Source: Candidatus Woesearchaeota archaeon (lineage in GTDB: Archaea > Nanobdellota > Nanobdellia > SCGC-AAA011-G17 > UBA489). Taken from it: a stretch of DNA of 64,000 nucleotides. This document shows, one piece after another, positions 1,514-63,714 of the stretch. Every line of letters begins with the position of its first letter. Position 1 is the stretch's first letter. Below the pieces are notes generated by a model. The model did no database searches. It was not told the origin of the DNA and saw nothing but the letters and a program-made list of their open reading frames with translations. The position numbers and the translations under genes are program-made. The stretch covers positions 32,228 through 96,227 of the forward strand of contig JAGVZA010000002.1 of NCBI GenBank assembly GCA_018302985.1. Direction: 5' to 3'.

Positions 1514-3085
1514 ATGGCTGAAGAAGACGCAGGTGTACCAGCACCAACGGCAGGAATTTCTTTTCATATAGACTCTGTTCCAGAAGTTATTACCCTGCCA
1601 GACGTGCATGATAAGACTCAATTGAACATAATCTATCCTTTGATTCCTCCATATGCTTTTGCTCACATCTACTGGGATCCTGCCAATGATGAATTGAGAT
1701 ATGAAGTCGAAGAGCCAAAATTAGATGATAATGAAGCTCATATTCTCAGCGTGGTAGAAAAAGGCATTGAAGAATTAATTAATATCAGTTTCATTAATGT
1801 TAAACGAACAGACGTAGTTATAGTCTATCTGGAAAAAAACATTGCAGTGTTGCTGGCGGAGTTAGGCATTAAAGTCTCAGAAGAAACTTTCTCCAAGATT
1901 ATGTATTACATTTATAGAAATTTTGTAGGTTTAAATCAGATCGAGCCTCTGATGAAAGATTATTTTATTGAAGACATCGAATGCAACGGAGTCAATGCTC
2001 CTCTGTATATCGTCCACAGAAAGTACAGGAACATCAAAACTAATATTATTTTCAAAGATCCCCAAGAATTAACTTCATTCGTAGAAAAGCTGGCGCAAAA
2101 ATGTGGTAAATATATTTCTTATGCTCATCCTATTTTGGATGGAAGACTTCCAGATAAAAGCAGAGCTAATGCTTCTTATACACAGGATATTTCTACTAGA
2201 GGTCCAGCGTTCACTATCAGAAAATTTACTGCAGAACCTTACAGCCCAACAAAACTTATGCAATTGAAAACTGTCTCTCCAGAAATGTTAGCCTACCTCT
2301 GGTTAGTTATTGAACACGAAGCTAGTTTTTTAGTCATCGGAGGAACTGGATCAGGTAAAACCTCTATGCTCAATAGTCTTGCTTTTTTCATTCCACCAGA
2401 ATCAAGAATAGTATCCATTGAAGACACTCATGAATTAAATCTTATGCATGAAAACTGGTTGCCATCAGTAGCAAGAGAAGCAACTGGCGTAGGTGCAGAA
2501 GGCAATGTTGGTGAAGTAGATCTTTTTGCCTTGCTCAAGGAATCCTTCCGTCAGCGTCCAGATTATGTTATTGTCGGTGAGATTAGAGGAAAAGAAGCTT
2601 ATGTCTTGTTCCAGGGAGCAGCCTCTGGTCACGCTGTAGCTTGTACTCTCCATGCTGAAGATGTAGACACTATGATTCGCAGATTGGAAAATGAGCCTAT
2701 TAACTTGTCAGGATCATTATTGGAAACCATTGATATTGTTTGCATTATGGGGCAAGTGCATGTCCAAGGTGAAGAAGTGCGTCGAGTCAAGGCAGTCGTA
2801 GAAATTGTCTCAGTCAGTGATAAGGGAGAAGCAATCACTAATACTCCTTTTGTCTGGGATCCAAAAACAGATTCCTTCTTTTTCAAAACTGAAAGTGTTA
2901 TGTTCAATAAGTTAGTGCAGGAATTTGGCCTGTCTCCTGAGTATTTGCAGCAGGAATTTTCCAGAAGAACAAAATTATTCATAGAATTATACAAAAGAAA
3001 TATTATTGACTATCGCGAAGTCCAAAAAATAATTAATGCTTATTATAAAACCCCGCAAGAAATAATCCGCAAATTTAATCTCTGA
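1514..3085 (+). CDS. type II/IV secretion-system family ATPase (archaeal FlaI/PilB-like or bacterial TadA/CpaF-like pilus assembly ATPase)
   Basis: 523 aa. Walker A is VIGGTGSGKTSMLNSL. The SIEDTHELNLMHENW and GEIRGKEAY motifs are typical of the FlaI/TadA/GspE superfamily. Confidence 0.85.
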   Translation: MAEEDAGVPAPTAGISFHIDSVPEVITLPDVHDKTQLNIIYPLIPPYAFAHIYWDPANDELRYEVEEPKLDDNEAHILSVVEKGIEELINISFINVKRTDVVIVYLEKNIAVLLAELGIKVSEETFSKIMYYIYRNFVGLNQIEPLMKDYFIEDIECNGVNAPLYIVHRKYRNIKTNIIFKDPQELTSFVEKLAQKCGKYISYAHPILDGRLPDKSRANASYTQDISTRGPAFTIRKFTAEPYSPTKLMQLKTVSPEMLAYLWLVIEHEASFLVIGGTGSGKTSMLNSLAFFIPPESRIVSIEDTHELNLMHENWLPSVAREATGVGAEGNVGEVDLFALLKESFRQRPDYVIVGEIRGKEAYVLFQGAASGHAVACTLHAEDVDTMIRRLENEPINLSGSLLETIDIVCIMGQVHVQGEEVRRVKAVVEIVSVSDKGEAITNTPFVWDPKTDSFFFKTESVMFNKLVQEFGLSPEYLQQEFSRRTKLFIELYKRNIIDYREVQKIINAYYKTPQEIIRKFNL

Positions 3086-3087
3086 TC

Positions 3088-4122
3088 ATGGACAATGTAC
3101 ACTCTAATAAATATATGGTATCGAAAAAGAAACGAAAGCAATACTTGCGAGACATTAATGCAGATCCCAAAGTATTAGAACGTTTGAAAGCGCCAAAAAA
3201 ACAGCAACCTCTGCAAGTTGAGTATACTGTCTACAAGCCTAATGCTTTTGGAAAAGTTGCTAACACTTTTGTAGGTTCCTCTGCACAGACTATTGAACAT
3301 CTCTTTCCTGCCTTTGCTAAAAATATTACCCATCAATTGCGCATGGCAAGCGTGAAAGTCTTGTCACAAACCTATCTGAACATGATGGTGTTTGCTCTGC
3401 TGATTACTTTCTTGATCGGTTCCATAGGCACAGTTCTAGCAGCACGTCTTGTGCAAGCTACACTAAGCACGACTATTCTGTTTGCTGCCTTAATAGGTAT
3501 AGGATTAACAGTTGTCTGTGGTGTTATTTTTGCAGTGTATCCTGCTACTGTGGTCAGCAAGCGAAGTCATCAAATAAAAAATGATTTGCCTTTTGCTATT
3601 ATTCACATGTCTACTATTGCTGGTTCTGGTGCTGAGCCTATGGCTATGTTTAAATTATTATTAAACGCAAATGAGTACAAAGGTTTGGACAGTGACGTAA
3701 AGAGAATTGTAAATTATGTCAATTTATTTGGTTATGATTTGTCTACAGCTTTGAAAACTGTTGCATCAACAACGCCTTCCAAGCAATGGAAAGATGTCTT
3801 AACTGGTATTACAACAACTATAGAATCTGGAGGATCATTAAAATCTTATCTCAGAAGTATGGCTGATGATACCATGAATGCTTATAGATTAGAAAGAAAA
3901 AAATATATAGAGACACTAGCAACTTATTCAGATATCTACACTGCAGTTTTGATTGCAGCTCCCTTGTTATTTATTGTAACTTTGGCTATTATCAATATTT
4001 TAGGAGGAACTATTGGAGGATTTTCAGTGAATACTTTGGCTAAAGCAGGAACTTATATTGTTATTCCTTTCCTGAATGTAGCATTTATTTTATTCCTCAA
4101 TATTATCAACCCCGACAAATGA
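3088..4122 (+). CDS. pilus/archaellum platform membrane protein, T2SSF domain (FlaJ/TadB-like, first half)
   Basis: 344 aa polytopic membrane protein with T2SSF-like ...ESGGSLKSYLRSMADD... region. Starts 3 nt after the ATPase stop. Confidence 0.6.
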   Translation: MDNVHSNKYMVSKKKRKQYLRDINADPKVLERLKAPKKQQPLQVEYTVYKPNAFGKVANTFVGSSAQTIEHLFPAFAKNITHQLRMASVKVLSQTYLNMMVFALLITFLIGSIGTVLAARLVQATLSTTILFAALIGIGLTVVCGVIFAVYPATVVSKRSHQIKNDLPFAIIHMSTIAGSGAEPMAMFKLLLNANEYKGLDSDVKRIVNYVNLFGYDLSTALKTVASTTPSKQWKDVLTGITTTIESGGSLKSYLRSMADDTMNAYRLERKKYIETLATYSDIYTAVLIAAPLLFIVTLAIINILGGTIGGFSVNTLAKAGTYIVIPFLNVAFILFLNIINPDK

Positions 4123-4928
4123 ACAAATTCAAACTCAGTTACATGGTGGAAATTTTTATCTCTCTGTTAGCTGTAGCCATAGATGTTTATTTCTTCTGGG
4201 GAAAACGTCCTTTTTGGCCTGTTGCTATTATAGTCCTGTCTTTAGGATGGTTGCATTTTTGGATAGATTTTTTTGCAGAGAACAAAAGGCAAAAGGAAAT
4301 TGAACTGAAATTCGTAGAGTTCGCTCGTACCTTAGTGGAATCTGTCAAATCTGGAGTTTCCATTCCTCGATCCATTATGAATATTGCTCAGAAAGATTTT
4401 GGTGCATTAAGTCCTTACTTAAAAAAATTAGCACATCAAATTGAATGGGGCATCCCAACAAGAAAAGCCTTGCTCACTTTCAGTGCAGACACTAATAATC
4501 GAGTTATCAAACGTTCAGTCTCTATTTTAGTTGAAGCAGAGCAAAGCGGCGGAGATATTTCTAATGTTTTGGAGTCTGTTGTAGAATCTGTCATCAACAT
4601 CAAGAAGATGCGTGAAGAAAGAAAATCATCAGTCTATTCGCAAATAGTGCAAGGATACATTGTCTATTTTATCTTCATTGTCATCATGCTCATCTTGCAG
4701 TTATGGTTATTCCCTAAGTTAGGTAATCTTTCTGTTGGAGGCAGCACACCAGGAGAGTTTAACTTGAATCCAACATTCTTTGGTTTAATTATGATCCAAG
4801 GATTCTTTGCAGGCATTATGATTGGAAAATTCTCTGAAGGCACTATCAAGCAAGGGGTATTGCATGCTTTAATTTTGATGACTGTTGCAGCCTTAATTAT
4901 CACCACAGTAAAGGGAAGTATTCTATGA
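4119..4928 (+). CDS. pilus/archaellum platform membrane protein, T2SSF domain (FlaJ/TadC-like, second half)
   Basis: 269 aa with T2SSF-like VESVKSGVSIPRSIMNIAQ...EQSGGDISNVLESV. Shares an ATGA start/stop overlap with the upstream gene. Confidence 0.6.
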   Translation: MNKFKLSYMVEIFISLLAVAIDVYFFWGKRPFWPVAIIVLSLGWLHFWIDFFAENKRQKEIELKFVEFARTLVESVKSGVSIPRSIMNIAQKDFGALSPYLKKLAHQIEWGIPTRKALLTFSADTNNRVIKRSVSILVEAEQSGGDISNVLESVVESVINIKKMREERKSSVYSQIVQGYIVYFIFIVIMLILQLWLFPKLGNLSVGGSTPGEFNLNPTFFGLIMIQGFFAGIMIGKFSEGTIKQGVLHALILMTVAALIITTVKGSIL

Positions 4929-5650
4929 GGGGAAAAAAAGGATTAGACTACATTGACTGGAGTATTAGTATGGGTATTTTTATTGTAGCTATCACAGCTT
5001 TATTTGTCTTTCTCAAGCCAGGAGCGCGTCCAGAACATAATCAAGATACCTTAATCAATCTTGTAGAGCAACAATTCACTAAAGAAACGCAATGGTTTGT
5101 CCATGAAACTCCCCTCTTTATAGAACATTTTCAAGCACTCTATGGTACAGGCAGTCCAGTGGAAATTAAAATAGAAGCTGATATGATGCGTTTAACCACT
5201 ATCAGACCTCCCCCAAGTAATATTTTTATAGTTTCTCCTCTCCCTGCAACTACTGTAAGATGGAATTGTAATGCAATAAATTGTGATAATACCCAGTTCA
5301 AACTATTCGGAACAACAAACACAGTACAAGAGTCAACTCAAATGGAAATAACTTGCACTCCCTTAAATGATCCTATAGCCTGCGCTGCAGTATTAGGTGC
5401 AACCATCACTCATCAAGGCATGCAGCAAAGTAAAATCACTTTATTAGGTACGCAAGACTATAATGCTATCAAAAGCACCTGGACATATCCTCTCCAAAAA
5501 GAATTTGCAATTTATCAAGATGGTCATAAGATCATCGGTGGCCAAGAGCCAGCGCAACAAGTAGAGGTGTTTGTAAAAGAAGCAAACATGAATCTGGTAG
5601 CAGCAGATGGCACACAAACTACAACAACAATTAATATTCGAGTCTGGTAA
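4925..5650 (+). CDS. pilin-like protein with N-terminal class III (prepilin-type) signal
   Basis: N-terminus MRGKKG|LDYIDWSISMGIFIVAITALFVFL: charged residues, Gly, then a hydrophobic helix. ATGA overlap with the upstream platform gene. Confidence 0.4.
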   Translation: MRGKKGLDYIDWSISMGIFIVAITALFVFLKPGARPEHNQDTLINLVEQQFTKETQWFVHETPLFIEHFQALYGTGSPVEIKIEADMMRLTTIRPPPSNIFIVSPLPATTVRWNCNAINCDNTQFKLFGTTNTVQESTQMEITCTPLNDPIACAAVLGATITHQGMQQSKITLLGTQDYNAIKSTWTYPLQKEFAIYQDGHKIIGGQEPAQQVEVFVKEANMNLVAADGTQTTTTINIRVW

Positions 5651-5651
5651 C

Positions 5652-6065
5652 ATGAACAAAAAAGGATTTGTCAGAACATTGGAAGCAGTCATTGCAGTCA
5701 TTATAGTATTAGGGATAATCTTGGTCGTAGCACCAAAACCTTCTTCACAGCAATCTGAAACTCCAGAAAGTCTCAAGGAAGCGCAATCATTTATCTTGGA
5801 TCGTATAAGCACCAATGAAGCACAGCGTACCTGTATCCAAAATTTAGCTCCAACAGCAGCTGGAGAATGCGCAGCTCTCTGTCCATCCATAGACACATTC
5901 GTACAACAAAATCAACCCAAAGGATATGACTATCGTTGTGAAATTTGTAACAGTGCAAGTACTTGTTCTAGTGCATTACCTTTGGATAAATCACTCTATA
6001 CTGATAGTAGGCTAATAGCAACAACCCCGGCAAAAGTACTTCGTTTAGTGTTCTGGGCACAATAA
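5652..6065 (+). CDS. pilin-like protein with class III signal peptide, Cys-rich C-terminal region
   Basis: The ATG at 5652 gives MNKKG|FVRTLEAVIAVIIVLGIILVVA, a typical prepilin/archaeal pilin N-terminus. The ORF-track start at 5607 is probably an over-extension. Eight Cys in the C-terminal half. Confidence 0.5.
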   Translation: MNKKGFVRTLEAVIAVIIVLGIILVVAPKPSSQQSETPESLKEAQSFILDRISTNEAQRTCIQNLAPTAAGECAALCPSIDTFVQQNQPKGYDYRCEICNSASTCSSALPLDKSLYTDSRLIATTPAKVLRLVFWAQ

Positions 6066-6938
6066 TTATTTTCTAATTTTAGCTACAAAAAATCCTTCAG
6101 TGTCTTGATACTGTGGCCAGATTCTTAGCCCTGTAGTTTGATCAGCTTTGATAGGCAAATCAATCGTTTCCAACTTGCCACCAACTTTATCCAAAAGATA
6201 CTGGACTACTTCCTCATTTTCTTCAGGCTCCAGAGAACAAGTAGAATACACAAGTGTGCCTCCAGGTTTCAATAAAGAGAAGGCATGTTTGATTAATTTC
6301 TTTTGTAATTTTGCTAAACGTTTAATAGTCCTAGGATTCCACTCAAGTAAAGTCTTTTTTGTTTGTTTAGTTTCTCCTTTAATAGTTCCAGAGGCAGAGC
6401 ACGGTGGATCCAAAAGAATCTTGTCAAAAGGATTGCCTAAATATCTTTCTGCAGCAATGCACAGTACATCAACATTAGTCACGCCACATCTCTGTAAATT
6501 CTTGCGTAAGATAGTGGCACGAAAGCTATTCGAGTCAATAGCAATAATCTGTCCTTTGTTTTGCATCATCGCAGCCATTTGAGTAGTTTTTCCGCCAGGA
6601 GCAGCGCACAATTCTAAAACTCTCTGGCCTGGTTGAGGATCTAACACAACTACAGGAAGCAGACTCACACTACTTTGCACAAAAAATAATCCTTCTTGAT
6701 GTTCTAGTAAATTCCCAATATCTCTTCTTTCTCCACTCATATAAAATCCTTCTTTGCACCAGGGAATAGATTCAAAAGTCCAGTCCTGGCGTGTTAATTG
6801 TTGAAGCAATGCTTTGATAGAAATCTTTAAGGTATTGACTCTGATAGAACGTCGTAAAAATTGTGCAACACTCTGTTGATAGGCTACAAAATCAGTTAAC
6901 TGGGAATATTTCTGTATGAATTTGTCTTTGAAGCGCAT
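6066..6938 (-). CDS. NOL1/NOP2/Sun-family RNA (cytosine-C5)-methyltransferase (small, archaeal Trm4/Nop2-like size)
   Basis: 290 aa with SAM-binding ELCAAPGGKT and the catalytic LDPPCSASGT motif (DAPCSG-type). Lacks the NusB/PUA extensions of bacterial RsmB/F. Confidence 0.85.
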   Translation of the reverse strand: MRFKDKFIQKYSQLTDFVAYQQSVAQFLRRSIRVNTLKISIKALLQQLTRQDWTFESIPWCKEGFYMSGERRDIGNLLEHQEGLFFVQSSVSLLPVVVLDPQPGQRVLELCAAPGGKTTQMAAMMQNKGQIIAIDSNSFRATILRKNLQRCGVTNVDVLCIAAERYLGNPFDKILLDPPCSASGTIKGETKQTKKTLLEWNPRTIKRLAKLQKKLIKHAFSLLKPGGTLVYSTCSLEPEENEEVVQYLLDKVGGKLETIDLPIKADQTTGLRIWPQYQDTEGFFVAKIRK

Positions 6939-7674: not shown

Positions 7675-7748
7675 TGCGGCAGCCGGGATTTGAACCCGGA
7701 TCATTGCCTTGGCAAGGCAATATTCTAACCAGGTTTAACTACTACCGC
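7675..7748 (-). tRNA. tRNA-Gly (anticodon GCC)
   Basis: The reverse complement folds as a cloverleaf: acceptor GCGGTAG/CTGCCGC, anticodon stem ATTGCC/GGCAAT with loop TTGCCAA, T-arm GGGTTCAAATCCC, discriminator A. No encoded CCA. Confidence 0.8.
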
Positions 7749-7874
7749 ATCCAGAATAAGACCCAAAACTGGACTATTTAAAGATTATGAGCTTCGAAAG
7801 AAAGTATGAATAAAGCGGAAAAAATGCGGTTTTTTCACCAGAAGAATTATAAATCCTAAAATGTTTGCTAATTT

Positions 7875-18875: not shown

Positions 18876-19379
18876 ATGAGACGTTTATTTCTTCTTTTTG
18901 GCCTGAGTATGATCTTAGTGCTAAGCGGATGTGTACAAATTAATGAACCTGTCTACTGTACAGCAGATGCTAAAGCATGTCCTGATGGAACCTATGTAGG
19001 TCGAGATGCTAACAATAATTGTCAATTTTATTCCTGTTCTCAACCAAGACAGTGTACTGAAGAGGTAAAAAATTGTCCAGGTGCATCAGCAGTTGGTCGT
19101 GACCCTTACAATAATTGTGAATTCTATCCTTGCCCAACAATGCAAGCATGCACAAAAGAGTTAAAATCTTGCCCCGGTAATACTATGGTAAGTCGTAATC
19201 CTTCTAATAATTGTGAATTCTATGATTGTCCACCAACAACAAAAATAACTAAAATAAAATGTGAAAGCCAGAACGGTATAGTTGTTCTAAATCCTGGTGC
19301 TGGTGTTATGTGTCCACAAGGAAAAGTAATGATAGGTACAGTTACTATGGGCATTGAAAGCGGCATTTGTTGCAGATAA
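18876..19379 (+). CDS. secreted Cys-rich tandem-repeat lipoprotein
   Basis: Signal peptide plus lipobox MRRLFLLFGLSMILVLSGC. Three ~35-aa repeats of the form C..E.K.CPG...VgRdpnNNCeFY.CP. Confidence 0.55.
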   Translation: MRRLFLLFGLSMILVLSGCVQINEPVYCTADAKACPDGTYVGRDANNNCQFYSCSQPRQCTEEVKNCPGASAVGRDPYNNCEFYPCPTMQACTKELKSCPGNTMVSRNPSNNCEFYDCPPTTKITKIKCESQNGIVVLNPGAGVMCPQGKVMIGTVTMGIESGICCR

Positions 19380-20858: not shown

Positions 20859-21251
20859 TCACTGTTGTTTTTGTGGAACTGGGCAGCCAGCTTTCGTTGC
20901 TAGTTCTTCAAATGTAGGAACACCAACTAGCCAATTGTCCTTGTTAGGATCATCATTAAACACAAAGGTAGCATATTTGTCAATGCCTTTCTTGATGCAG
21001 AGTTCAGATTGTTCATTTTCACCACGAGCATCGCATTCAACATAAGTAAGATATTTCAGGGCTCCGCCAAAGTTTTTCTTGACTTGCGCGCATTTAGGAC
21101 ACCAGAAAGTGCCATAAAATACTCCGCCTTTTTCAGTAATGCATTGTGCCAACTTATCAATCTCTGGTTGTGGATAGCCTCCAGAACTGCATCCTGCAAC
21201 GACAACAAGCATCGTAGCGAAGAACAAAAAAAGTTTATTTGAGACTGCCAT
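20859..21251 (-). CDS. thioredoxin-fold lipoprotein (CPKC active site)
   Basis: Lipobox VVAGCSS; YGTFWCPKCAQVKKNFG is a thioredoxin-like CxxC. Confidence 0.55.
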   Translation of the reverse strand: MAVSNKLFLFFATMLVVVAGCSSGGYPQPEIDKLAQCITEKGGVFYGTFWCPKCAQVKKNFGGALKYLTYVECDARGENEQSELCIKKGIDKYATFVFNDDPNKDNWLVGVPTFEELATKAGCPVPQKQQ

Positions 21252-34197: not shown

Positions 34198-35400
34198 TTA
34201 GTCCCGTGGTGCGCCAGCGGCTGTTGCAGTTCCAACATTGTCATACACGCTTATTTTTGCATTGTCATCTGTTGGATGATAGCCATTTCTGTAAGGATTA
34301 CTCTCATAATTCACACCTACTCGTCCATCATTATCAAAGTCTAGACTGATGATTTGTCCTGTTTGAGGTTCAATCCAGAACATGCTACCATCAGGCAAAT
34401 GGACATCAGTAACAGCATGTGCATAATCTGTCACGTTAGTATTGCCTCTATACTTGATAAAATAAGTGTAGGTTGCATTAAATCCAGCGCCTGTCAAATT
34501 CTGTTCTAAGGTGTCCGCGAAGTCATCGCAATCAAAAGTTGTTGCATTATAAGTTAAGTTGCTAATTCTGCTGGCGACAACTGCTTGCATAATAGTATTG
34601 ACTGCAGGGCTAGAAAGATTTGCTAAAGTCAAATTGACACGAGCTGTAGGTGCAGGATCTAAAGTTGTTTCAGTTGGAACACAATTTTGTACTGCTCCTC
34701 CTGTAGTCAAACGACAATAATTAAGAGATACTCCTTCAGCAATACATTCGCTTCCTGGTCCACCTAAAACTCCCAAAGTACAACAACCAGTGCCAACAAT
34801 TCCTTGACCAACAGTATAACTGACTGGGTTAGAAATAATAAATGGCTTCGGTGTCATCAAAGGATCATGCACAGCAACTGCGCTGGTAAAAGGTAATCCT
34901 AGTAATCCAGGGTCATTCGGAATAGCTATAGGAATAAATCCATGACCAGAATTATCCAAGAGTCCAAAGAAGAGCACAGGATAAGGTGGATTTACAGGAA
35001 TATGTCCTGCTCCAGGAATGTCTAAGCCAGGATAATCTCCAGTAAAAGAGATTGCTAGAATATAAGGCAAGTTAGCCATAGTGAGTGGTGCTTGTACTTC
35101 CAGAAGGATGGTTCCTCCAATGTTGAAGTTGCCGCTCACACGATGTACAACTTGTGAAAGACTTCCAGCAGCCATCGTTTGTGGATTGTTATTGTTGCCG
35201 CTCGAAGAAGCTGGTTGCGCTTGCAATTGTTGTAGTGCTGTAATCAATTGTGGTGTATTAACATTCGTTATCATCTGAATATTCTGTCCTGTCGGTTGTG
35301 TAAACAACGTTTGTGCAGGAGTAGGTTTGGCATAAATTAAACCAACAAAGCCTAAAAAAAGAACTAAAGAAAGAATACTTATTTTCCAATATGCTTTCAT
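34198..35400 (-). CDS. secreted hypothetical protein (Sec signal peptide; Gly/Pro/Thr/Asn-rich)
   Basis: MKAYWKISILSLVLFLGFVGLIYAKPTPA signal peptide; no recognisable domain. Lies next to the ECF sigma gene. Confidence 0.45.
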   Translation of the reverse strand: MKAYWKISILSLVLFLGFVGLIYAKPTPAQTLFTQPTGQNIQMITNVNTPQLITALQQLQAQPASSSGNNNNPQTMAAGSLSQVVHRVSGNFNIGGTILLEVQAPLTMANLPYILAISFTGDYPGLDIPGAGHIPVNPPYPVLFFGLLDNSGHGFIPIAIPNDPGLLGLPFTSAVAVHDPLMTPKPFIISNPVSYTVGQGIVGTGCCTLGVLGGPGSECIAEGVSLNYCRLTTGGAVQNCVPTETTLDPAPTARVNLTLANLSSPAVNTIMQAVVASRISNLTYNATTFDCDDFADTLEQNLTGAGFNATYTYFIKYRGNTNVTDYAHAVTDVHLPDGSMFWIEPQTGQIISLDFDNDGRVGVNYESNPYRNGYHPTDDNAKISVYDNVGTATAAGAPRD

Positions 35401-35490: not shown

Positions 35491-36042
35491 CTAAGGATGA
35501 AAATGAGTTCCAAAGTGTTCTCGTAAAAAAGCTCGTGCTCTATGCAATCTTGTAGATGTTGTCTTTAGATTTACTCCCTGTTGCTGAGCAATAGCGACAT
35601 AGCTTAGGTTTTCAAATGCATAAAGTCTAAAAACACTCCTGAATTTTTCAGGTAGCAAAGCAACAGCTCGTTGAATTTTTGCCACGGTTTCTTCTGTAGC
35701 TAATTCAGTAAGAGGAGTTGCCTTGGCAGGACAATCTTGTTGTTCATCTAAAGGAAATGCTCTTTGAGCTCGACGTTGTGAACTCAAATAATCTCTACAA
35801 ACATTAGGAAAAGAAGCCCATATGTATCCTGGTAAGTTTTCAAAAATCTTTGGTCCATCATCGCTTGCAATTCTATGAAGCACTCTAAGATAAGTTTCTT
35901 GTGCACAATCTTCAGCAGCATCTCGTGAAAGTGAAAATTGTTTATATCCTCGTCTAAGTAATGCAGGTCGTAATCTTTCTACTGTTGTGGTCAATTGATC
36001 TAAACAGTCTTGTGTAAGTGTATCGAGAGTCGTCGTCACCAC
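35491..36042 (-). CDS. ECF-type RNA polymerase sigma-70 factor
   Basis: Region 2 QETYLRVLHRIAS...YIWASFPNVCRDYLSSQRRAQ. Region 4 ALLPEKFRSVFRLYAFENLSYVAIAQQQGVNLKTTSTRLHRARAFLRE. GTG start. Confidence 0.7.
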   Translation of the reverse strand: MVTTTLDTLTQDCLDQLTTTVERLRPALLRRGYKQFSLSRDAAEDCAQETYLRVLHRIASDDGPKIFENLPGYIWASFPNVCRDYLSSQRRAQRAFPLDEQQDCPAKATPLTELATEETVAKIQRAVALLPEKFRSVFRLYAFENLSYVAIAQQQGVNLKTTSTRLHRARAFLREHFGTHFHP

Positions 36043-50584: not shown

Positions 50585-50657
50585 TGAGCCGGGAAGGATT
50601 TGAACCTTCGACCCCGTCCTTGTAAGGGACGCATCATAACCGCTAGACCACCGGCTC
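50585..50657 (-). tRNA. tRNA-Val (anticodon TAC)
   Basis: The reverse complement is GAGCCGGTGGTCTAGCGGTTATGATGCGTCCCTTACAAGGACGGGGTCGAAGGTTCAAATCCTTCCCGGCTCA. It has an archaeal/eukaryote-type D-loop (GGTCTAGCGGTTATGA) and no encoded CCA. Confidence 0.8.
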
Positions 50658-50697
50658 ACAACAGAAATGTCCCAAATATGCTATTTAAAGATTGTGC

Positions 50698-52767: not shown

Positions 52768-52802
52768 GAAAAGAAAAAAAGAAGTTTAAATAGATTCCTA
52801 GT

Positions 52803-53579
52803 CTATTCTGGTTTTAAGAATTCAATGCGTCTCGTCCCTGGATTTAAGAGAGGTACACGATGCTGTTGCAGAAAGCCAGTCAGTTGCAAATAGCCATTCT
52901 GTACAGTAGAATACATACTACCTGTAATAGCTTTGACATCACCAACAGATTTACCGACTACTTTTCTTGCTTCATTCAATTCTATCAGGCTGACTAAAGC
53001 TGGTCCAGTATGCTGTAAATGTTCATAGGCATGACGAACTTGGTCTCCTGTAGTAAGGAAAACACCATACGCTTGTTGACATTGATCCATTAAGGCGACA
53101 GATTCCTGCGCATATTGCTGTGTTTGTTGTTCAATAACTGCTTGACGATTGCCCATCAGAGTTTGAAAACCATTGTGAGCGCGTGTTTTGATAGACTTAA
53201 CAAAAGAGAGCACATCTGTTGGTTGTTCAATGGGTAGTAATTCCGCAGGTTTGTAGCCCTGAGCATCTTCCATACGTTTCTGCAGTAAATCAAAATAAGC
53301 CAATAAGTGCTCACGTTCTCCTCCATATAACAGTGTCATATTATCCAAAATACCGCTAATGTCTCCAAGAACACAAATCTCCTGATCCACTAAGTGTCGT
53401 AAATCTGCTTTGTCTGCTTTCCCAATCAGAGAAAGAATACCAGACCATTTGCCAGTGATACGATCAATGTCTTGCTTGACTCCTGCTAATGCTTCTTTCT
53501 TTTCGCGAAGAGTTTGCATATAATGTCTGTAGGAATCTTGTCCTAAAGTAATTTCTAATCTTCCAGTAAGTGATGTCAT
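52803..53579 (-). CDS. hypothetical protein
   Basis: 258 aa; ORF only. Last gene of a three-gene minus-strand unit. Confidence 0.4.
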   Translation of the reverse strand: MTSLTGRLEITLGQDSYRHYMQTLREKKEALAGVKQDIDRITGKWSGILSLIGKADKADLRHLVDQEICVLGDISGILDNMTLLYGGEREHLLAYFDLLQKRMEDAQGYKPAELLPIEQPTDVLSFVKSIKTRAHNGFQTLMGNRQAVIEQQTQQYAQESVALMDQCQQAYGVFLTTGDQVRHAYEHLQHTGPALVSLIELNEARKVVGKSVGDVKAITGSMYSTVQNGYLQLTGFLQQHRVPLLNPGTRRIEFLKPE

Positions 53580-53857
53580 TTTTTTGTCTCCTTTTCAGCT
53601 TCTATTTTTTCTAGAACTTGTTGTAAATCATGCTCATGGCATAAATTACGAATACGATATTCTGTATTGCCCAGTTGAAAATGTTCAGGTTGGATCTCTT
53701 GGGCATTGTTTGTGACAGTGTCAATAAGATAATGTTCCTGATCAGTGCGTCGCACACGATATCTATAATCATTAGTGACGCAACTATGAGTAAGATAGCC
53801 AGCGGCAAATAATGCAGCATAGAATTTTATACGTAAAACAGTTTTGATAAATTTCAT
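53576..53857 (-). CDS. hypothetical small secreted protein
   Basis: 93 aa with an N-terminal hydrophobic segment. ATGA-type overlaps on both sides. Confidence 0.35.
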   Translation of the reverse strand: MKFIKTVLRIKFYAALFAAGYLTHSCVTNDYRYRVRRTDQEHYLIDTVTNNAQEIQPEHFQLGNTEYRIRNLCHEHDLQQVLEKIEAEKETKK

Positions 53858-54294
53858 TTCTTTATTCCTCCAATTTTTTCTCTCAGATAGTCTTTAGCTT
53901 CTCTATAAGTGTAAACAACTTCATTGCGAACACGTACAGCAGTTTGACAGGCATATGCGTCAAGTTTCTCCAAAAGATTGTCGCCAGCATCTGCTGTATT
54001 TTTTGGTCGCTTGAAAGGAACAGGAGAAGGTAAAGGATCAGCACCTGTTCGAGAAGGATTTTTCAAATATAGTAAAAAACGTTGCTCCATCGTTAGAGGT
54101 TGTGCAATGGGTTGTTGAGGTTCAGGAACTTGTTGTGATATCTGCACAGGTACAGCAACAGTTTTTTCTAAGGAAGATATAGGGGTAGAAGCTGGAGAAG
54201 TAACTGGAGTTTCAGCACGTCCACAATGACCTGTGCAATAACCAAGCGTGAACACGCCCACCCCTGCAAGTACATATCCTTTAATCGAAGTCAT
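53854..54294 (-). CDS. hypothetical lipoprotein-like secreted protein
   Basis: Signal peptide plus a lipobox-like sequence (VFTLGYC). Pro/Gln-rich linker. Preceded on the minus strand by upstream element D. Confidence 0.4.
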   Translation of the reverse strand: MTSIKGYVLAGVGVFTLGYCTGHCGRAETPVTSPASTPISSLEKTVAVPVQISQQVPEPQQPIAQPLTMEQRFLLYLKNPSRTGADPLPSPVPFKRPKNTADAGDNLLEKLDAYACQTAVRVRNEVVYTYREAKDYLREKIGGIKK

Positions 54295-54338
54295 AGAACT
54301 AGGAAGATTTTAGTTTAAAAGAAACTTGCTACGAAAAT

Positions 54339-54420
54339 GTCGAAAACTTTGCGAAAAAGTTGAAAATAAAACAACCTACGCCGAAAACTTTGCGAAAAGA
54401 AAGCATTTTTCCGGAAATAC
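54339..54420 (-). promoter_or_regulatory. conserved upstream element copy D: tandem CGAAAACTTTGCGAAAA half-sites plus TTCCGGAAA
   Basis: GTCGAAAACTTTGCGAAAAAG and GCCGAAAACTTTGCGAAAAG lie 41 nt apart, followed by TTTTCCGGAAATACC. Upstream of the minus-strand gene starting at 54294, and also ~55 nt upstream of the plus-strand cca gene. Confidence 0.4.
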
Positions 54421-54473
54421 CACGCTGGATTCGCAACAGAAAGTTTATATGATTGAGAAAAAAGAGATTTTTC

Positions 54474-55679
54474 ATGGATTTCAAAAAAATATTAGCAACT
54501 TGTAAACCTTCGCCAGAAGAGGAACTGCATTTGCAAAAACTAGTGAAGGAAATACTTAGTAAAATCAAGATTCCCGGTGCAAAACCCATATTAGGTGGTT
54601 CAGGTGCCAAGAATACCTGGCTAAGGGGAACGCATGATATCGATATTTATGTAAAATTTAATGTAAAACAATATAGTCGCAAAACAGATCAACTAGCAGA
54701 TATTTTAGAAAAAGCACTAAAAAAACATTTCAAGCTAGATCGTTTGCATGGCTCTCGAGATTATTATCAAGTATACAAAGCCCCATATACAGTAGAAATA
54801 GTCCCTATTTTAGATATCAAAAAAGCTGCAGAAGCAAAAAATATCACAGACTTTTCACATTTACACGTTGCCTACGTGCAAAAATACAAAAAAGCAGCAG
54901 ATGAAATTCGTTTAGCAAAATTATTTGCAAAAGCCCAAGGCATCTATGGTGCAGAAAGTTATATGCAGGGATTTTCTGGGTATGTTATGGAGTTGTTAGT
55001 TATTCACTATGGTTCATTCATGAAGATGATGCGTGCAGTTGCAAAATGGAAAGAAACAACCATCATCGGCGATAAAAAAGAAGCGCTCAGTCTTAATCCA
55101 GCAAAAAAAGTATCTCCTTTAATTTTGGTAGATCCTGTCCAGCCAGAAAGAAATGCAGCCGCTGCTCTATCAGAAGAAAAATATCAGCAATGTATCAAAG
55201 CTTGTCAAAAATTCCTAAAGCATCCCTCAGAAAATTTATTCGAAGAAGAAGAGATCAACTGGGAAAAAATCAAAAAGAAAGGAACTGTATGGTATTGCGC
55301 AGTAACTCCTTTGCCAGAGAAAAAAGATGTTGCTGGAGCTAAAATGTTAAAAGCATTTGATTTCACTAAACAAACCTTAGAACGTGCAGAATTTAAACTC
55401 TATAAATCTGGTTGGCAATATGCTGCTCCGTCTTTTTTCTATTTTGTAGTAGATAAAAAACCCCTATCACCAACACTACTGAGACAAGGTCCTCCTTTAA
55501 CACATCCAGAAGGAGTCCTACATTTCAAAAAACAACACAAGAAAATACTCACGAAAAAAGGTCGTTTATATGCAGAAGTCCCTCGAGAATTTACACATGC
55601 ACAAGACTGTCTTAAGAGTGTTCTAGCCTCAGAAAACGTTGTAAATAGGGTCAAAAACGTCTCCGTAAGCATTCTGTAA
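54474..55679 (+). CDS. cca: class I (archaeal-type) tRNA CCA-adding nucleotidyltransferase
   Basis: ILGGSGAKNTWLRGTHDIDIYVKF matches the class I CCA-enzyme catalytic motif (GS.ARGT.L.G.SDIDIF). Protein length ~400 aa. ATG at 54474. Confidence 0.7.
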   Translation: MDFKKILATCKPSPEEELHLQKLVKEILSKIKIPGAKPILGGSGAKNTWLRGTHDIDIYVKFNVKQYSRKTDQLADILEKALKKHFKLDRLHGSRDYYQVYKAPYTVEIVPILDIKKAAEAKNITDFSHLHVAYVQKYKKAADEIRLAKLFAKAQGIYGAESYMQGFSGYVMELLVIHYGSFMKMMRAVAKWKETTIIGDKKEALSLNPAKKVSPLILVDPVQPERNAAAALSEEKYQQCIKACQKFLKHPSENLFEEEEINWEKIKKKGTVWYCAVTPLPEKKDVAGAKMLKAFDFTKQTLERAEFKLYKSGWQYAAPSFFYFVVDKKPLSPTLLRQGPPLTHPEGVLHFKKQHKKILTKKGRLYAEVPREFTHAQDCLKSVLASENVVNRVKNVSVSIL

Positions 55680-55721
55680 GCACAAGTAAATCTTATAAAG
55701 GAGGGTAGGTGCATCTCTCCT

Positions 55722-56012
55722 ATGACTACAGAACAAACAAATCCTAATCTAGATGAATATGATATTGTAATGGATAGAGAGGGATTAATTCTTTTAGCAA
55801 AGGAAGCAATAGGACCTGGCAACGAAAGTCCTCTTGTTCAATTAACTGCGGCCTTGCATAATCGTGGTATTAATCATGCATCAAATACAGTATGGGATTC
55901 TGAAACTGCAGGTCTTGTAGAACTATATCAAGTTGTATATGTTCCTAAAGAAGAATTAGTTCATGCAATACCTCTACAACTAAGATATCTCACACGTCAA
56001 CAGAGTGCTTAA
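55722..56012 (+). CDS. hypothetical protein (96 aa)
   Basis: ORF with an AAGGAGGGT Shine-Dalgarno upstream. Confidence 0.35.
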   Translation: MTTEQTNPNLDEYDIVMDREGLILLAKEAIGPGNESPLVQLTAALHNRGINHASNTVWDSETAGLVELYQVVYVPKEELVHAIPLQLRYLTRQQSA

Positions 56013-56094
56013 TTAAGCACATCTTTTTCTGTACACAAATAAAGATGTTGCAGCGACCAAAAGTGTTATTAAGCTGAAACTTCTCTGCTAAGCT

Positions 56095-56595
56095 ATGCCA
56101 GGGCAAAAGAAGGTGGTTATTAACGACGCTAAGATCAAGCAAGAATCCGTCGTCAATATGACTGAATTCTATAAAGCTCTTTTTAACTGGTTTGCAAATT
56201 ATGGATATGATTTTTCTGAGGATGAATACAATGAAAAAGATACTGGGAAAAACAAAGATCTTAAGATTTACTGGACTGCTGAGAAAAAAATGGATCTCTA
56301 CATCAAGTGGAGAATAGAACTTAGCATGCTTATTCTAGGATTGGAAAGTGTTGAAATTGATCGTAATGGTCTCAAGTTAAAGACGAACAAATGTTCTATA
56401 GAATTTAAGATTACTTCCTCAATGATTAAAGATTATGATGATAAATGGAGCAAAGGATTCATGGCTTTGTTTAGAAGACTGTATGATCAAGTCGTTGCTC
56501 GTCAAAGATATAACAAGATGGAAGATGAGTTAATCAGAGAGACTAATAAGCTTATTGATGAAATCAAGGCTTTCTTGAACTTGTATCAGGCATAA
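56095..56595 (+). CDS. hypothetical protein (166 aa)
   Basis: ORF only. Confidence 0.4.
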   Translation: MPGQKKVVINDAKIKQESVVNMTEFYKALFNWFANYGYDFSEDEYNEKDTGKNKDLKIYWTAEKKMDLYIKWRIELSMLILGLESVEIDRNGLKLKTNKCSIEFKITSSMIKDYDDKWSKGFMALFRRLYDQVVARQRYNKMEDELIRETNKLIDEIKAFLNLYQA

Positions 56596-58039
56596 TTTTT
56601 TCTACTGCAGCAAGATATCTTTGCATATTATATTTGCGCACTAGTCCAGACATATTCATCAAGCGCACTTTGCCAAAGATAGGTTTGGTAAACCAGGGTC
56701 TATCATGTAATCCTCCTAAAGCCCATGCAATGCCCGCATAACCATTTGGATCTCGTCCATCTAAGGAATATTTATCATTCAAATATACCGCGATCTTAAA
56801 CGCGTCTTGAGGTCGTTTTGTCCAGGTCAGAAGTTGTTTGCACCAGTACATGCGCATGAAACCATGCATGCTTCCAGTATAGACCATTTCTAATTGAGCA
56901 GCATTCCAATAAGGATCATGAGTTTGTGCTCGTTCCAATTGTTCTTTGGTATACAGATAAAGTCTCTTGTCTTGTTTATGTTCTTGCAAGGTTTTTCTGC
57001 TCCAGACTGGCATGCCTTGATAGGTTGCATGTTTTTTATTGAAATGACAAAAATTATACGCTAGATCTCTGCGCACAATAAGTTGATCAAAATAAATGTG
57101 TATTGCATCAGGACTTATCAGACTTTTAAAAAGACGATCCACGCTCAGTTTTTTGTGCTGTAAAATCTGTCTGGCTATAGCAATAGGTGAAATCATCCCA
57201 AAATGAAGATAAGGCGATAAGTGTGATGTTCTTTGTAAAGTTGGGTCATCTTTGGTAACTTCATAAGTATCTAAATTATGAGCAATAAAATAAGTAAGTT
57301 TTTCTTGTGCTGCAGTCTCTCCACCTTTGAAAGCACTAGGTCTTACAGTGTGATCTATCGATGATCTGCTGACTTCCTTAGCGACATCAAAATCTGGAGG
57401 TAGAAAATACTCTGGATAGACAAACGGCTTTTTGTTGAGCAATACAGGATTAGTAACATCTTCCAAGGCTTCTGCTAAGACTTTATGAATCTTGGATCTG
57501 ATAGTAGCAGCGCTCCATTTTTGTTTGTCAAAAAAGCGCATAGGCACAGTAGTGCAGGAATCAACAACATAATGACTCATCAAACAGCGTTGAGTAACAG
57601 TAGTATTTTCAAGAGGAGTCACAAAAGAAGGATAATCATCACTTACAAGACAAATTGCTTTTTTCAGGAAAGTATCTAGTGCAGGTTGTTTTTTCCCGCG
57701 AACTAAATAAAATCCATAATTAATACCTAGTTTCTTAAATCGTTGATAGAGTTCTTTCACTCCTTCTAAAATGAAAGTATACGTGCGATCAGAAGCATAA
57801 GGATAATCTTCGTCTAAGGCATGGTAGACAACTAAAGGAACTTTATATCTATTCGCTTGCTCAATCGCAAACTGCAAGGCAAAGTTAAAAGTTGTTCTTT
57901 GCGTCATCTGCATCCAATACAAGACATAGTCTCCAGTAGGATCATCTTGTTTGCTATTCAAGAGAAAAATGCGTTTTTGTCCTAGTCCTCGCAATCGTTG
58001 AATGTCTTTTGTTTTCCAAAATGGAAGATTGGAGGGCAT
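56564..58039 (-). CDS. phr: class II CPD photolyase
   Basis: The C-terminal GFMRMYWCKQLLTWT...DPNGYAGIAWALGGLHDRPW matches the class II photolyase FAD-binding signature. Confidence 0.8.
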   Translation of the reverse strand: MPSNLPFWKTKDIQRLRGLGQKRIFLLNSKQDDPTGDYVLYWMQMTQRTTFNFALQFAIEQANRYKVPLVVYHALDEDYPYASDRTYTFILEGVKELYQRFKKLGINYGFYLVRGKKQPALDTFLKKAICLVSDDYPSFVTPLENTTVTQRCLMSHYVVDSCTTVPMRFFDKQKWSAATIRSKIHKVLAEALEDVTNPVLLNKKPFVYPEYFLPPDFDVAKEVSRSSIDHTVRPSAFKGGETAAQEKLTYFIAHNLDTYEVTKDDPTLQRTSHLSPYLHFGMISPIAIARQILQHKKLSVDRLFKSLISPDAIHIYFDQLIVRRDLAYNFCHFNKKHATYQGMPVWSRKTLQEHKQDKRLYLYTKEQLERAQTHDPYWNAAQLEMVYTGSMHGFMRMYWCKQLLTWTKRPQDAFKIAVYLNDKYSLDGRDPNGYAGIAWALGGLHDRPWFTKPIFGKVRLMNMSGLVRKYNMQRYLAAVEKIMPDTSSRKP

Positions 58040-58042
58040 GGG

Positions 58043-58426
58043 TTAAGAAACTATCAATTTGACAAAATCAATTTTTTTGCTTGTTTGCAGTTTCTGAAGA
58101 AGTTTTTTGATAAGAGTAGCATCTCCTTGTACCATAAAAGTTTCAAGACAGTGTTCATTTGCTAAATGGGTATGAAAATGCGTTTTAATTAGATCACGAT
58201 ACTCATGACGAAGAGCTGAAACTTCCTTGGAATGTTGATCTTTATGAGTAACTAATAATACTCCCTCAACTTTTCCCTTAAGATGTGCTTGTGTTTTATG
58301 TTCTGTCAGCAAGCTGCGTAAACCTGCCCGAATAATCTCACTGCGTCCAGTGAACCCTAGTGCAGTCTGTAGCTGATCAATCTCTTGTAAAAGGTCATCT
58401 GGTAAGGACATGCTGATGATAGTCAT
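58043..58426 (-). CDS. nikR: nickel-responsive regulator NikR-like (RHH plus ACT-like metal-binding domain)
   Basis: N-terminal RHH IISMSLPDDLLQEIDQLQTALGFTGRSEIIRAGLR. C-terminal His/Cys cluster HFHTHL...HC. Confidence 0.65.
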   Translation of the reverse strand: MTIISMSLPDDLLQEIDQLQTALGFTGRSEIIRAGLRSLLTEHKTQAHLKGKVEGVLLVTHKDQHSKEVSALRHEYRDLIKTHFHTHLANEHCLETFMVQGDATLIKKLLQKLQTSKKIDFVKLIVS

Positions 58427-58486: not shown

Positions 58487-58876
58487 CTATTTTTTTCTCG
58501 CAAAAGCATCTAATAAAAGTAATCCAACACCTATCACATTAAAACTATCAGCAAGATTAAAGCTAGGCCAGAAAGGAACATGAATAAAATCAATCACATA
58601 CCCATAGAAAACACGATCTAATAAATTACCTAAAGTGCCCCCCAAAAGAAAACCTAAAGCAAGTTGATATTCATGACTATAATACACAAGCACAGCAATC
58701 ACTACTACGGCTATAAAAATTAAAAGCCAAGTTTGTCCTTGAAGAATTCCGAAGGCAGCACCAGTATTTGTAGTATATCTAAATCCATTATTTACAACAA
58801 AAGATTTGCTAAAGTGATCCAGAAGAAAAACTACTAAGCCAGTCACATAAAATAACCAAGGTATGGATTTTACCAT
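58487..58876 (-). CDS. lspA: lipoprotein signal peptidase II
   Basis: LDHFSK...NTGAAFG and FNLADSFNVIGVGLLLL match the LspA conserved boxes. 4 TM helices. Confidence 0.7.
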   Translation of the reverse strand: MVKSIPWLFYVTGLVVFLLDHFSKSFVVNNGFRYTTNTGAAFGILQGQTWLLIFIAVVVIAVLVYYSHEYQLALGFLLGGTLGNLLDRVFYGYVIDFIHVPFWPSFNLADSFNVIGVGLLLLDAFARKK

Positions 58877-59193: not shown

Positions 59194-59288
59194 AGGAAAA
59201 AGGATGCTAAGGAGTTTAAATAGCTTCTTGTTAAAAATCTAGCAACCACAAAACCTTTAAATGTGAGAACTTCACCCATAAAGAACAC

Positions 59289-62787: not shown

Positions 62788-63714
62788 ATGCACTTTCCAA
62801 AAGTAAAAAATCGATTCTTTTTAGCGCCTATGGTCGATGTCAGTAATCTAGCCTTTAGACTCTTATGTAGGAAATATGGCGCATCCATGGCATATACAGA
62901 GCAGTTATCCTCTTTAGCCATCCTCAGAGAAAATACAAGAACGTTAAAACTAGCAGAAACTAATGAGCAAGATAAGCCTGTAGGATTGCAATTGTTTGGT
63001 CGTAATCCAGAAATTTTAGTAGAAGCAGCAAATAAACTCAAAAAGAATTTCGATGTCATAGATTTGAATCTAGGTTGTCCCTCAAAGAAAATAGTTGCTC
63101 AAGGATATGGGTCAGCTTTGTTAAAAGAAAAAGACAAAGTCAAAGAAATTATTGAAGCATTAGTCAGTGGAGTCAACAAACCTATTACAGTCAAAATGCG
63201 TTCTGGCTTTCAGAAAGTAGAAGCTTTAGAATTAGTAAAAGTAGTTGAAAAAGCAGGAGCATGTGCTTTAACCATCCATGCTAGAACACAAGAACAACAA
63301 TACTCAGGAAAAGCAGATTGGAATCTCATCAAGCAAGTGAAGCAAGCAGTAAGTATTCCTGTCATTGGCAATGGCGATGTAGACAGTCCGCAAAAAGCAC
63401 TCCAATTATTGGAAGAAACTAAATGTGATTATATCATGATCGGTCGTGCTGCGCAGCATAATCCTATGATCTTCAAAAATATTCTCCACTATGAAAAAAC
63501 TAATGAATTTCTGGAGCAAACAACACAGGAAAAACTAGATCTCTGTTTTGAGTATGCGCAACTAGATACAGAAGGCTCCTTTGTCCGCTTGAAACAGATT
63601 TGTCAATATTTCACCAAAGGCATTACTAACGGCGCTAGACTGCGAGAAAAGCTCAATACAGCAAGGTCAAAAGAAGACATCCTAAATATACTAAAAGTAA
63701 CTACTTATAAGTAA
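62788..63714 (+). CDS. dus: tRNA-dihydrouridine synthase
   Basis: FLAPMVDVSNLAFRLLCRKYGA..., IDLNLGCP, HARTQEQQYSG are Dus family motifs. Confidence 0.8.
   Translation: MHFPKVKNRFFLAPMVDVSNLAFRLLCRKYGASMAYTEQLSSLAILRENTRTLKLAETNEQDKPVGLQLFGRNPEILVEAANKLKKNFDVIDLNLGCPSKKIVAQGYGSALLKEKDKVKEIIEALVSGVNKPITVKMRSGFQKVEALELVKVVEKAGACALTIHARTQEQQYSGKADWNLIKQVKQAVSIPVIGNGDVDSPQKALQLLEETKCDYIMIGRAAQHNPMIFKNILHYEKTNEFLEQTTQEKLDLCFEYAQLDTEGSFVRLKQICQYFTKGITNGARLREKLNTARSKEDILNILKVTTYK

Follow-up and report, generated by a model that had tools for sequence, protein, structure and literature searches.

Sigma-70-class factors are "particularly prevalent in Woesearchaeota" (Castelle et al. 2021, Front Microbiol, PMC8204110; fam00359). 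In that study, mis-binning was excluded, no anti-sigma factors were found, and the mechanism was left open. For the lipoprotein signal peptidase, no archaeal Lsp homolog has been identified according to a 2025 Nat Commun paper (PMC12462473). For the class I CCA-adding enzyme, structures are available from A. fulgidus (PDB 1R89, 1SZ1, and 3OVA). Here, we analyzed 64,000 nucleotides of contig JAGVZA010000002.1 of a Candidatus Woesearchaeota archaeon (the whole stretch is referred to as the window), in which the gene for a class I CCA-adding tRNA nucleotidyltransferase shares the DNA with genes for an extracytoplasmic function (ECF) sigma-like protein and a signal peptidase II (LspA). An earlier note, made from the sequence without database searches, had proposed either a chimeric contig or a DPANN-like archaeon with absorbed bacterial regulators. 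The second proposal was borne out by the relatives of the CCA enzyme, the deposited taxonomy, linkage, and synteny. The window is very probably an authentic, non-chimeric segment of a Woesearchaeota (DPANN) genome that combines an archaeal CCA-adding enzyme, tRNA genes, and TATA-box promoters with long-resident genes of bacterial type.

The window corresponds approximately to positions 65,964-129,963 of ANAN16-1 scaffold_16 (325,631 bp) from a Rifle aquifer metagenome. Ten proteins spread over the window were looked up by exact sequence, and all of them (10/10) have NCBI entries named "Candidatus Woesearchaeota archaeon," with accessions from MBS3144086 to MBS3144159 that ascend along the window; J4208 locus tags are attached to the two of these entries that are hypothetical proteins. 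GatD, to our knowledge an archaea-specific subunit of the Glu-tRNA(Gln) amidotransferase, is encoded on the same scaffold, ~8.5 kb upstream of the window start (L022 1-301). The CCA-adding enzyme, the tRNA genes, and the elements in front of them are as follows.

54474..55679, + strand: class I (archaeal) CCA-adding tRNA nucleotidyltransferase, 401 aa, MBS3144148.1 (TIGR03671, Pfam, and structure alignment)
54444..54451, + strand: TATA-like box TTTATATG, centered 26.5 nt upstream of the ATG of the CCA gene
7675..7748, - strand: tRNA-Gly(GCC), CCA not encoded (ARAGORN and Rfam)
7775..7782, - strand: TTTAAATA box inside aatCTTTAAATAG, centered ~30 nt upstream of the mature tRNA-Gly 5' end
50585..50657, - strand: tRNA-Val(TAC), CCA not encoded (ARAGORN and Rfam)
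50682..50689, - strand: TTTAAATA box inside an identical aatCTTTAAATAG, centered ~29 nt upstream of the mature tRNA-Val 5' end

Judged from its sequence, the CCA-adding protein is an ordinary class I enzyme with intact catalytic residues, and it would be expected to be active. The class I assignment made in the earlier note was confirmed: the protein scored 288.7 bits with the NCBIfam equivalog TIGR03671 cca_archaeal (cutoff, 281.3), matched PF09249 tRNA_NucTransf2 (E = 5.7e-37) and PF21133 CAA_C (E = 3.1e-8) in Pfam, and aligned over residues 8-396 with A. fulgidus CCA-adding enzyme structures, 1r89 and 3ova among them (E = 3.4e-36). A class II affiliation, which the note had named as the outcome that would overturn its view, was not found; neither PF01743 PolyA_pol nor an HD domain matched at an E value of ≤0.01 in Pfam, and all solved structures that matched were class I enzymes. 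The top homolog is 98% identical, and all close homologs with a named source come from metagenome-assembled genomes (MAGs) of Woesearchaeota, Nanoarchaeia/Nanoarchaeota, or unclassified archaea.

The protein includes GSGAKNTWLRGTHDIDIY, and its nucleotidyltransferase motif, G-S-x(9-13)-D-x-D, reads GGSGAKNTWLRGTHDIDIY. G41-G42-S43, D55, D57, E108, and R226 were invariant in an alignment with 15 DPANN homologs (47-83% identity). In the A. fulgidus enzyme, the counterparts of D55 and D57 are E59 and D61, and that of E108 is D110. The alignment of the two enzymes takes in head, neck, body, and tail, and they have in common the G-S-x(n)-D-x-D motif, the arginine of the RNxAA motif (R226 here), and the Pfam domains. 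However, the window enzyme is shorter (401 aa versus ~437 aa), with a shorter tail region, and its third carboxylate, like that of the 15 DPANN sequences, is Glu (E108) instead of the Asp of A. fulgidus. The open reading frame (ORF; 54453/54474-55679, + strand) has an alternative TTG start at 54453, 2 nt 3' of the TATA-like box; the deposited protein is also 401 aa long, which corresponds to the ATG at 54474. The spacing between box and ATG implies that the mRNA would be leaderless or nearly so.

A CCA-adding enzyme is needed because the tRNA genes (both of the two in the window) do not encode the 3' CCA. As the earlier note had claimed, neither gene was followed by CCA when both 3' flanks were read. 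The lack of an encoded CCA is not diagnostic of archaea by itself, as it is found in bacteria too. The D-loop feature claimed for both tRNAs held only in part: a GGTCTAGCGGTTATGA D-arm is present in tRNA-Val but absent from tRNA-Gly. The two tRNA genes are preceded by the identical aatCTTTAAATAG, ~29-30 nt upstream of the mature 5' ends.

Promoter geometry was analyzed for the 39 genes with an upstream spacer of at least 45 nt, in which TTTAWATA was searched at positions centered 20-34 nt upstream of the start codon. With ≤1 mismatch, 10/39 genes carried the element, compared with a shuffle null of 2.4 ± 1.5 (0 of 2,000 shuffles reached 10) and a rotation null of 4.7 (P about 0.01). With ≤2 mismatches, 24 genes did so, compared with 13.6 and 16.0 under the shuffle and rotation nulls, respectively. 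The enrichment was positional, ~27 nt upstream, in agreement with the TATA-like boxes placed ~25 nt before the ATG in the earlier note; all distances are taken to start codons and mature tRNA ends, not to mapped transcription starts. Several genes with a TATA box further upstream (41-54 nt) carry Shine-Dalgarno-like GGAGG or GGGGT, and Shine-Dalgarno-like motifs precede 13 of the 31 operon-internal genes but 7 of the 39 first genes (P = 0.035). The view that the layout is not of the -10/-35 kind also stood, since sigma-70-type -35/-10 sites were not enriched in 44001-64000 (48 versus 57.5 ± 7.4 expected); intrinsic-terminator-like sites in the same interval were not enriched either (6 versus 11.4 ± 3.1 expected).

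We infer from these sequence features that transcription in the window would depend on TBP and TFB. The first genes of units would be transcribed from a TTTAWATA-type TATA box ~27 nt upstream of the start codon, a distance that implies leaderless mRNAs. The tRNA genes would use the same box ~29-30 nt upstream of their mature 5' ends, and operon-internal genes, or those with a farther TATA box, would tend toward Shine-Dalgarno-like motifs.

The bacterial-type genes that gave rise to the suspicion of a chimera, with their upstream elements and the conserved partner of the sigma gene, are as follows.

35491..36042, - strand: ECF-type protein of the sigma-70 family (sigma2 and sigma4 regions), 183 aa, MBS3144132.1
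36068..36075, - strand: TATA-like box CTTATATA, centered 29.5 nt upstream of the sigma GTG start
34198..35400, - strand: conserved sigma partner, 400 aa, with its own CTTTAAATA box and a GGGGG Shine-Dalgarno-like motif
58487..58876, - strand: short LspA (signal peptidase II), 129 aa, MBS3144153.1 (PF01252 and TIGR00077)
59213..59222, - strand: TATA-like element TATTTAAACT, with 2 mismatches to TTTAWATA, ~24 nt upstream of the operon ATG at 59193

Both family assignments of the earlier note were upheld. The sigma protein scored 78 bits with TIGR02937 (cutoff, 42.9), covering model positions 3-164 of 165; in Pfam, Sigma70_r4_2 reached 44.7 bits (cutoff, 25.7) whereas Sigma70_r2 stayed under its cutoff of 24 with 22.3 bits. 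Among solved structures, an ECF SigE was the best match, and ECF structures align over both domains. LspA scored 98.5 bits with PF01252 (cutoff, 25) and 78.1 bits with TIGR00077 (cutoff, 73.95). The genes for sigma, LspA, the DusB-type Dus, and the VKOR/DsbD-like proteins are of bacterial type and long resident, and they presumably entered horizontally from bacteria. The two that were tested, sigma and lspA, have host codon usage; sigma has a clear archaeal-type promoter and the lspA operon a weaker TATA-like element, and the neighborhoods of both are stable across related genomes.

The least improbable of the competing explanations has sigma and lspA reaching the genome only recently, on a mobile island or virus, and standing outside host physiology. 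The sigma clade is indeed tiny and patchy (2 of 1.84 billion representatives at E < 1e-30), and the pair of the sigma and 400-aa genes sits inside a purine region with neighbors that vary between lineages. However, the composition of both genes is host-like. GC content is flat over the window (35-40%), and relative to the window distribution, the GC content at third codon positions (GC3) and the codon fit have z values of -1.5 and +1.3 for the sigma gene and -0.9 and +0.8 for lspA, all within range. No integrase, transposase, or tRNA-flanked island lies beside either gene. In GCA_964367515.1, a sigma ortholog with 47% identity is located between a purL with 78% identity and a 400-aa gene with 61% identity; with sigma at 47% and PurL at 78% in the same position, a long vertical residence is implied. 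The short LspA appears widespread in MAGs named Woesearchaeota or Nanoarchaeota, and the local gene order is conserved. We therefore regard a recent arrival as improbable.

A chimeric assembly or mis-binned join, with breakpoints near 35-36 kb (sigma) and 58-59 kb (lspA), is more improbable still. Sigma-70-family factors and LspA are typical of bacteria, and once its own small clade is set aside, the sigma protein has its closest named relatives among bacterial ECF sigmas (~30-33% identity). However, the identical sigma protein (100%) was found on 23 contigs examined. In the 10 contigs displayed, which represent several samples and the output of three assembly pipelines (megahit k141 contigs, Logan assemblies, and ENA scaffolds), the gene is flanked by purL and by the 400-aa ORF and purA wherever flanks exist, and orthologous sigma loci are arranged alike. 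On the lspA side, the order CCA/165-aa ORF/photolyase/LspA/108-aa ORF ... ZIP ... Dus is kept in a 386,852-bp JGI contig of a relative (L004), whose CCA enzyme is 73% identical to that of the window; no NikR-like gene was called there, though the 107/108-aa ORF, lspA, and the photolyase gene are still adjacent. The compositional values given above, the canonical distance of the sigma TATA box, the weaker TATA-like element of the lspA operon, and the recurrence of the short LspA in Woesearchaeota and Nanoarchaeota MAGs, including GW2011_AR20, also speak against a join. Thus, the chimera proposed in the earlier note was not borne out, given linkage in independent assemblies, synteny, and host-like composition. 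Finally, it is hardly credible that the host is a bacterium (e.g., of a small-genome Candidate Phyla Radiation lineage) with an acquired archaeal class I CCA enzyme and pilus genes: the ECF sigma-like, LspA, DusB, and VKOR/DsbD-like genes are of bacterial type, and bacterial tRNA genes may likewise lack an encoded CCA, but TATA boxes stand at archaeal distances while sigma-70-type promoters and intrinsic terminators are not enriched, GatD and ArlI/ArlJ-type pilus machinery are encoded on the scaffold, the named close CCA homologs are all archaeal, 10/10 proteins were deposited as Woesearchaeota, and the sole sigma factor here is a divergent orphan ECF protein with no primary sigma features.

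Several points weigh against the reading of the window as an authentic Woesearchaeota segment. No genes for 16S rRNA, ribosomal proteins, RNA polymerase, TBP, or TFB were found in the ~82 kb inspected, and the assignment to archaea is therefore based on the CCA enzyme, GatD, the pilus locus, the promoter layout, and the taxonomy given by the depositors. The bacterial origin of LspA and sigma is deduced from family distribution, and the leaderless mRNAs from the distance between TATA box and start codon. Under the rotation null, the stricter of the two, the TATA enrichment is only moderate (P about 0.01). A complete bacterial transcription and translation apparatus, which the earlier note would have taken as evidence against an archaeal host, was not seen in the ~82 kb of scaffold inspected; this DNA provided further archaeal markers, namely GatD, ArlI, and ArlJ.

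The mixture of archaeal and bacterial genes as such is already known. It has been published for Woesearchaeota, and the window sequence is public and annotated; because sigma-70 factors of Woesearchaeota were reported by Castelle et al. 2021 and the sequence is public, the finding is counted as known. Recognition of the contig itself is thus of little import. In practical terms, it warns against reading sigma-like and LspA genes as contamination in contigs of this kind. Two side findings stand out, namely the pairing of the sigma gene with a 400-aa gene in at least seven loci and a DPANN LspA with intact catalytic residues. The sigma/secreted-protein pair and the DPANN LspA are modest but testable leads, which could matter more than the main finding.

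The sigma gene of the window has purL on one side and the 400-aa gene and purA on the other. When metagenome contigs were probed with the 400-aa protein for full-length homologs, all homologs with a gene-sized stretch of upstream DNA had a sigma-like ORF upstream on the same strand, and in the loci measured, this ORF ended 60-100 nt upstream of the 400-aa gene. The pair was found in the window and in L016, L019, L023, L024, L025, L027, and L028, which amount to at least seven distinct loci, given that L027 and L028 are near-identical versions of one locus and that the L024 contig holds only the 3' end of sigma. Two sigma genes stand in tandem in L019, and in L023 the partner gene occurs a second time, in divergent orientation. 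L026 showed no sigma match, but only ~380 nt are available upstream of its 400-aa homolog. Across loci, sigma proteins are 26-48% identical and partners 50-68%; the sigma protein thus diverges faster. Each of the two genes has its own cTTTAAATA box in the seven loci with both upstream regions readable. The sigma TATA box is similarly placed in the orthologous loci L016, L025, L027, and L028, and it is somewhat farther upstream in L019, together with a Shine-Dalgarno-like GGAG. The neighbors of the pair in L025 include a threonyl-tRNA synthetase whose N terminus matches the Ser-tRNA(Thr) hydrolase editing model. This editing domain of threonyl-tRNA synthetase is an archaeal feature.

The 400-aa partner begins with a signal peptide or membrane anchor, with ~6 residues ahead of the hydrophobic segment. 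Its C-terminal CDDFAD...H...IEPQ region gave sub-threshold matches to papain folds (E = 0.02 to 0.05), and a single-sequence AlphaFold2 model was unusable, with a mean predicted local distance difference test (pLDDT) score of 35. An anti-sigma factor was considered for this protein and ruled out: with only ~6 residues before the anchor, it cannot be a conventional anti-sigma factor, and no anti-sigma domain was found. No cognate anti-sigma gene lies beside the sigma gene, in agreement with Castelle et al. 2021 (PMC8204110).

The clade of the sigma protein is an orphan one; beyond the two close representatives, the profile search of 1.84 billion representatives ran into a continuum of 39,086 ECF sigmas, and it singled out no donor lineage. 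The best ten matches were mostly unnamed metagenome proteins, with one cyanobacterial protein and one JGI metagenome protein labeled simply "ECF sigma." Compared with the bacterial ECF sigmas SigE (9M9D) and SigW (5WUQ), the window protein has the same two-domain sigma2-sigma4 layout, the region 2.2 AEDxxQET(F/Y) motif, and the region 4.2 helix-turn-helix. In contrast to them, it has no adjacent anti-sigma gene, its gene has a TATA box upstream, the host RNA polymerase would be archaeal instead of a bacterial core, and region 2.4 is poorly conserved in the archaeal clade. The conserved parts of the protein in that clade are region 2.2 (AEDCxQxxY) and the helix-turn-helix of region 4.2, as opposed to a variable region 2.4. 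An ECF-type promoter (GAAC...CGT) was not seen upstream of the cassette genes on reading, with no dedicated scan made.

Region 2.2 of bacterial sigmas binds the polymerase clamp helices. Since regions 2.2 and 4.2 are conserved in the archaeal clade, the sigma-like protein might dock to the archaeal RNA polymerase clamp or bind DNA. We infer that it may regulate the adjacent 400-aa gene. Most likely, it would have been repurposed to bind DNA and regulate a promoter that depends on TBP/TFB; that it touches the clamp of the archaeal RNA polymerase is the more interesting idea but the less likely one. That the protein is no relic but a working regulator in a TBP/TFB system, docking to the homologous clamp coiled-coil or binding DNA and controlling its TATA-driven, papain-fold-like neighbor, appears unlikely overall. 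A literature search brought up no paper on how ECF sigmas would work with the archaeal RNA polymerase. Polymerase docking, if true, would make this protein the first bacterial sigma factor with a demonstrated function on an archaeal polymerase.

The sigmas of Castelle et al. are likewise bacterial-type factors in Woesearchaeota genomes, not mis-binned and with no recognizable anti-sigma; the likeness to fam00359 is at the class level. Beyond that report, the present locus adds an orphan ECF clade, a constant 400-aa secreted partner, and TATA boxes on both genes. The sigma/secreted-protein pair may therefore serve as a handle on the question raised by Castelle et al., i.e., the role of a sigma factor where anti-sigma factors and bacterial RNA polymerase are lacking.

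The lspA gene is the second gene of an apparent operon (56564-59193, - strand): it comes after a 107-aa ORF with no known function (58870-59193), which overlaps the lspA start by 7 nt, and is followed by genes for a NikR-like regulator and for a protein resembling class II photolyases (TIGR00591, 429.7 bits, short of the cutoff of 550). The catalytic Asp motifs VIDFI and FNLADS align with the catalytic Asp of 5dir and 9emz. The bacterial LspA proteins of P. aeruginosa (5DIR) and S. aureus (6RYO) share with the window protein the Peptidase_A8 family, both Asp motifs, NxGAAF, and GNxxDR. However, the window LspA has 129 aa compared with ~160-190 aa in bacteria, with deletions in the extracytoplasmic loops. 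The setting also differs from that of bacterial LspA, as the membrane lipids of the host are presumably archaeal and no Lgt gene was seen in the window. Most of the best 120 homologs are likewise short (about 110-140 aa), and those named by organism come from Woesearchaeota, Nanoarchaeota, or Nanoarchaeia, including GW2011_AR20, except for one from Dehalococcoidia. The short LspA thus appears widespread among Woesearchaeota and Nanoarchaeota.

Two ORFs with a lipobox are present in the window beside LspA, and no Lgt-like or AliA-like gene was seen there.

18876..19379, + strand: predicted lipoprotein, lipobox LVLSG|C, candidate LspA substrate
20859..21251, - strand: predicted lipoprotein, lipobox VVAG|C, between VKOR-like and DsbD-like genes, second candidate LspA substrate

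Among the top-ranked papers, the literature on Woesearchaeota, Nanoarchaeota, or DPANN contained no mention of signal peptidase II. Given the intact catalytic residues of the window protein, the lipobox ORFs nearby, and the existing GenBank annotation, the short LspA of DPANN archaea appears to have gone unnoticed so far. Together with the lipobox proteins, it may be relevant to signal-peptide cleavage, a step in the maturation of archaeal lipoproteins that is still unresolved. The second lipobox ORF is thioredoxin-/glutaredoxin-like and lies in a cluster (20141-21771, - strand) with a VKOR-family protein and a DsbD-like membrane protein. The cluster looks like a bacterial-type extracytoplasmic disulfide-bond system.

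The remaining features of the window include a pilus locus and two RNA modification genes.

1514..6065, + strand: archaeal type IV pilus-like locus with an ArlI/FlaI-like ATPase, a split ArlJ/FlaJ/UpsF-like platform, and two pilin-like ORFs
6066..6938, - strand: NOL1/NOP2/Sun-family RNA m5C methyltransferase, 290 aa (TIGR00446, 266.2 bits, cutoff 210.45; Pfam Methyltr_RsmB-F)
62788..63714, + strand: bacterial-type tRNA dihydrouridine synthase, DusB-like (TIGR00737, 293.9 bits, cutoff 293.3)

The best match of the pilus ATPase is archaeal ArlI/FlaI (E = 3e-121). The ArlJ/FlaJ/UpsF-like platform protein (3088-4928, + strand) is encoded by two overlapping ORFs of 344 and 269 aa, each corresponding to one half of the full-length archaeal protein. 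The class III signals with KKG| that had been ascribed to the pilins were recovered as class III-like N termini on the two pilin-like ORFs after the platform genes, MRGKKG|L... and MNKKG|FVRTLE.... The methyltransferase had been described as the short archaeal NSUN type. This description is supported at the family level only (TIGR00446 nop2p); the archaeal tRNA m5C and bacterial RsmF models score similarly, and both remain below cutoff. The Dus protein reached only 45.5 bits with the archaeal MJ0144-type model.

Beyond the window on scaffold_16, an RNase HII gene is located downstream, and an SMC gene with an intein (LAGLIDADG endonuclease domain; L017 14144-19189) lies ~4 kb past the window end. 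Within the window, purine-biosynthesis genes form two opposed clusters (26011-30975, - strand, and 36233-42275, + strand) that flank the region of the purA/sigma cassette. Some of these genes have unusual forms: purH occurs as two pieces, one N-terminal (228 aa, IMP cyclohydrolase region) and one for AICARFT (395 aa), the PurM match of a 482-aa protein is weak (39.5 bits), and PurC is long (366 aa). Two adjacent ORFs of 1,059 and 793 aa (44065-49627, + strand), preceded by a 55-aa ORF with a weak DUF5388 match, have no Pfam or NCBIfam match even at E ≤ 10; the 793-aa protein has relatives with at least 90% identity on several other contigs.

The 42-aa CxxC...CxxC zinc-ribbon ORF at 18701-18829 (+ strand) had been likened to ribosomal protein L40e. 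This identification was rejected, since no L40e model in Pfam or NCBIfam matched at E ≤ 1 and only generic zinc-ribbon matches below threshold were obtained. The ORF has no curated family match; it carries a GGAGGTGA Shine-Dalgarno-like motif and is probably a real small gene. Small toxin-antitoxin-like genes are found at 8066-8332 (- strand) and 18327-18488 (- strand), comprising a RelE/YafQ/ParE-like toxin and a HicB-like antitoxin, none of which reached a family cutoff. The HicB-like ORF was annotated from a TTG at 18548, which is probably not its true start; a TATA box is centered 27.5 nt upstream of an ATG at 18488.

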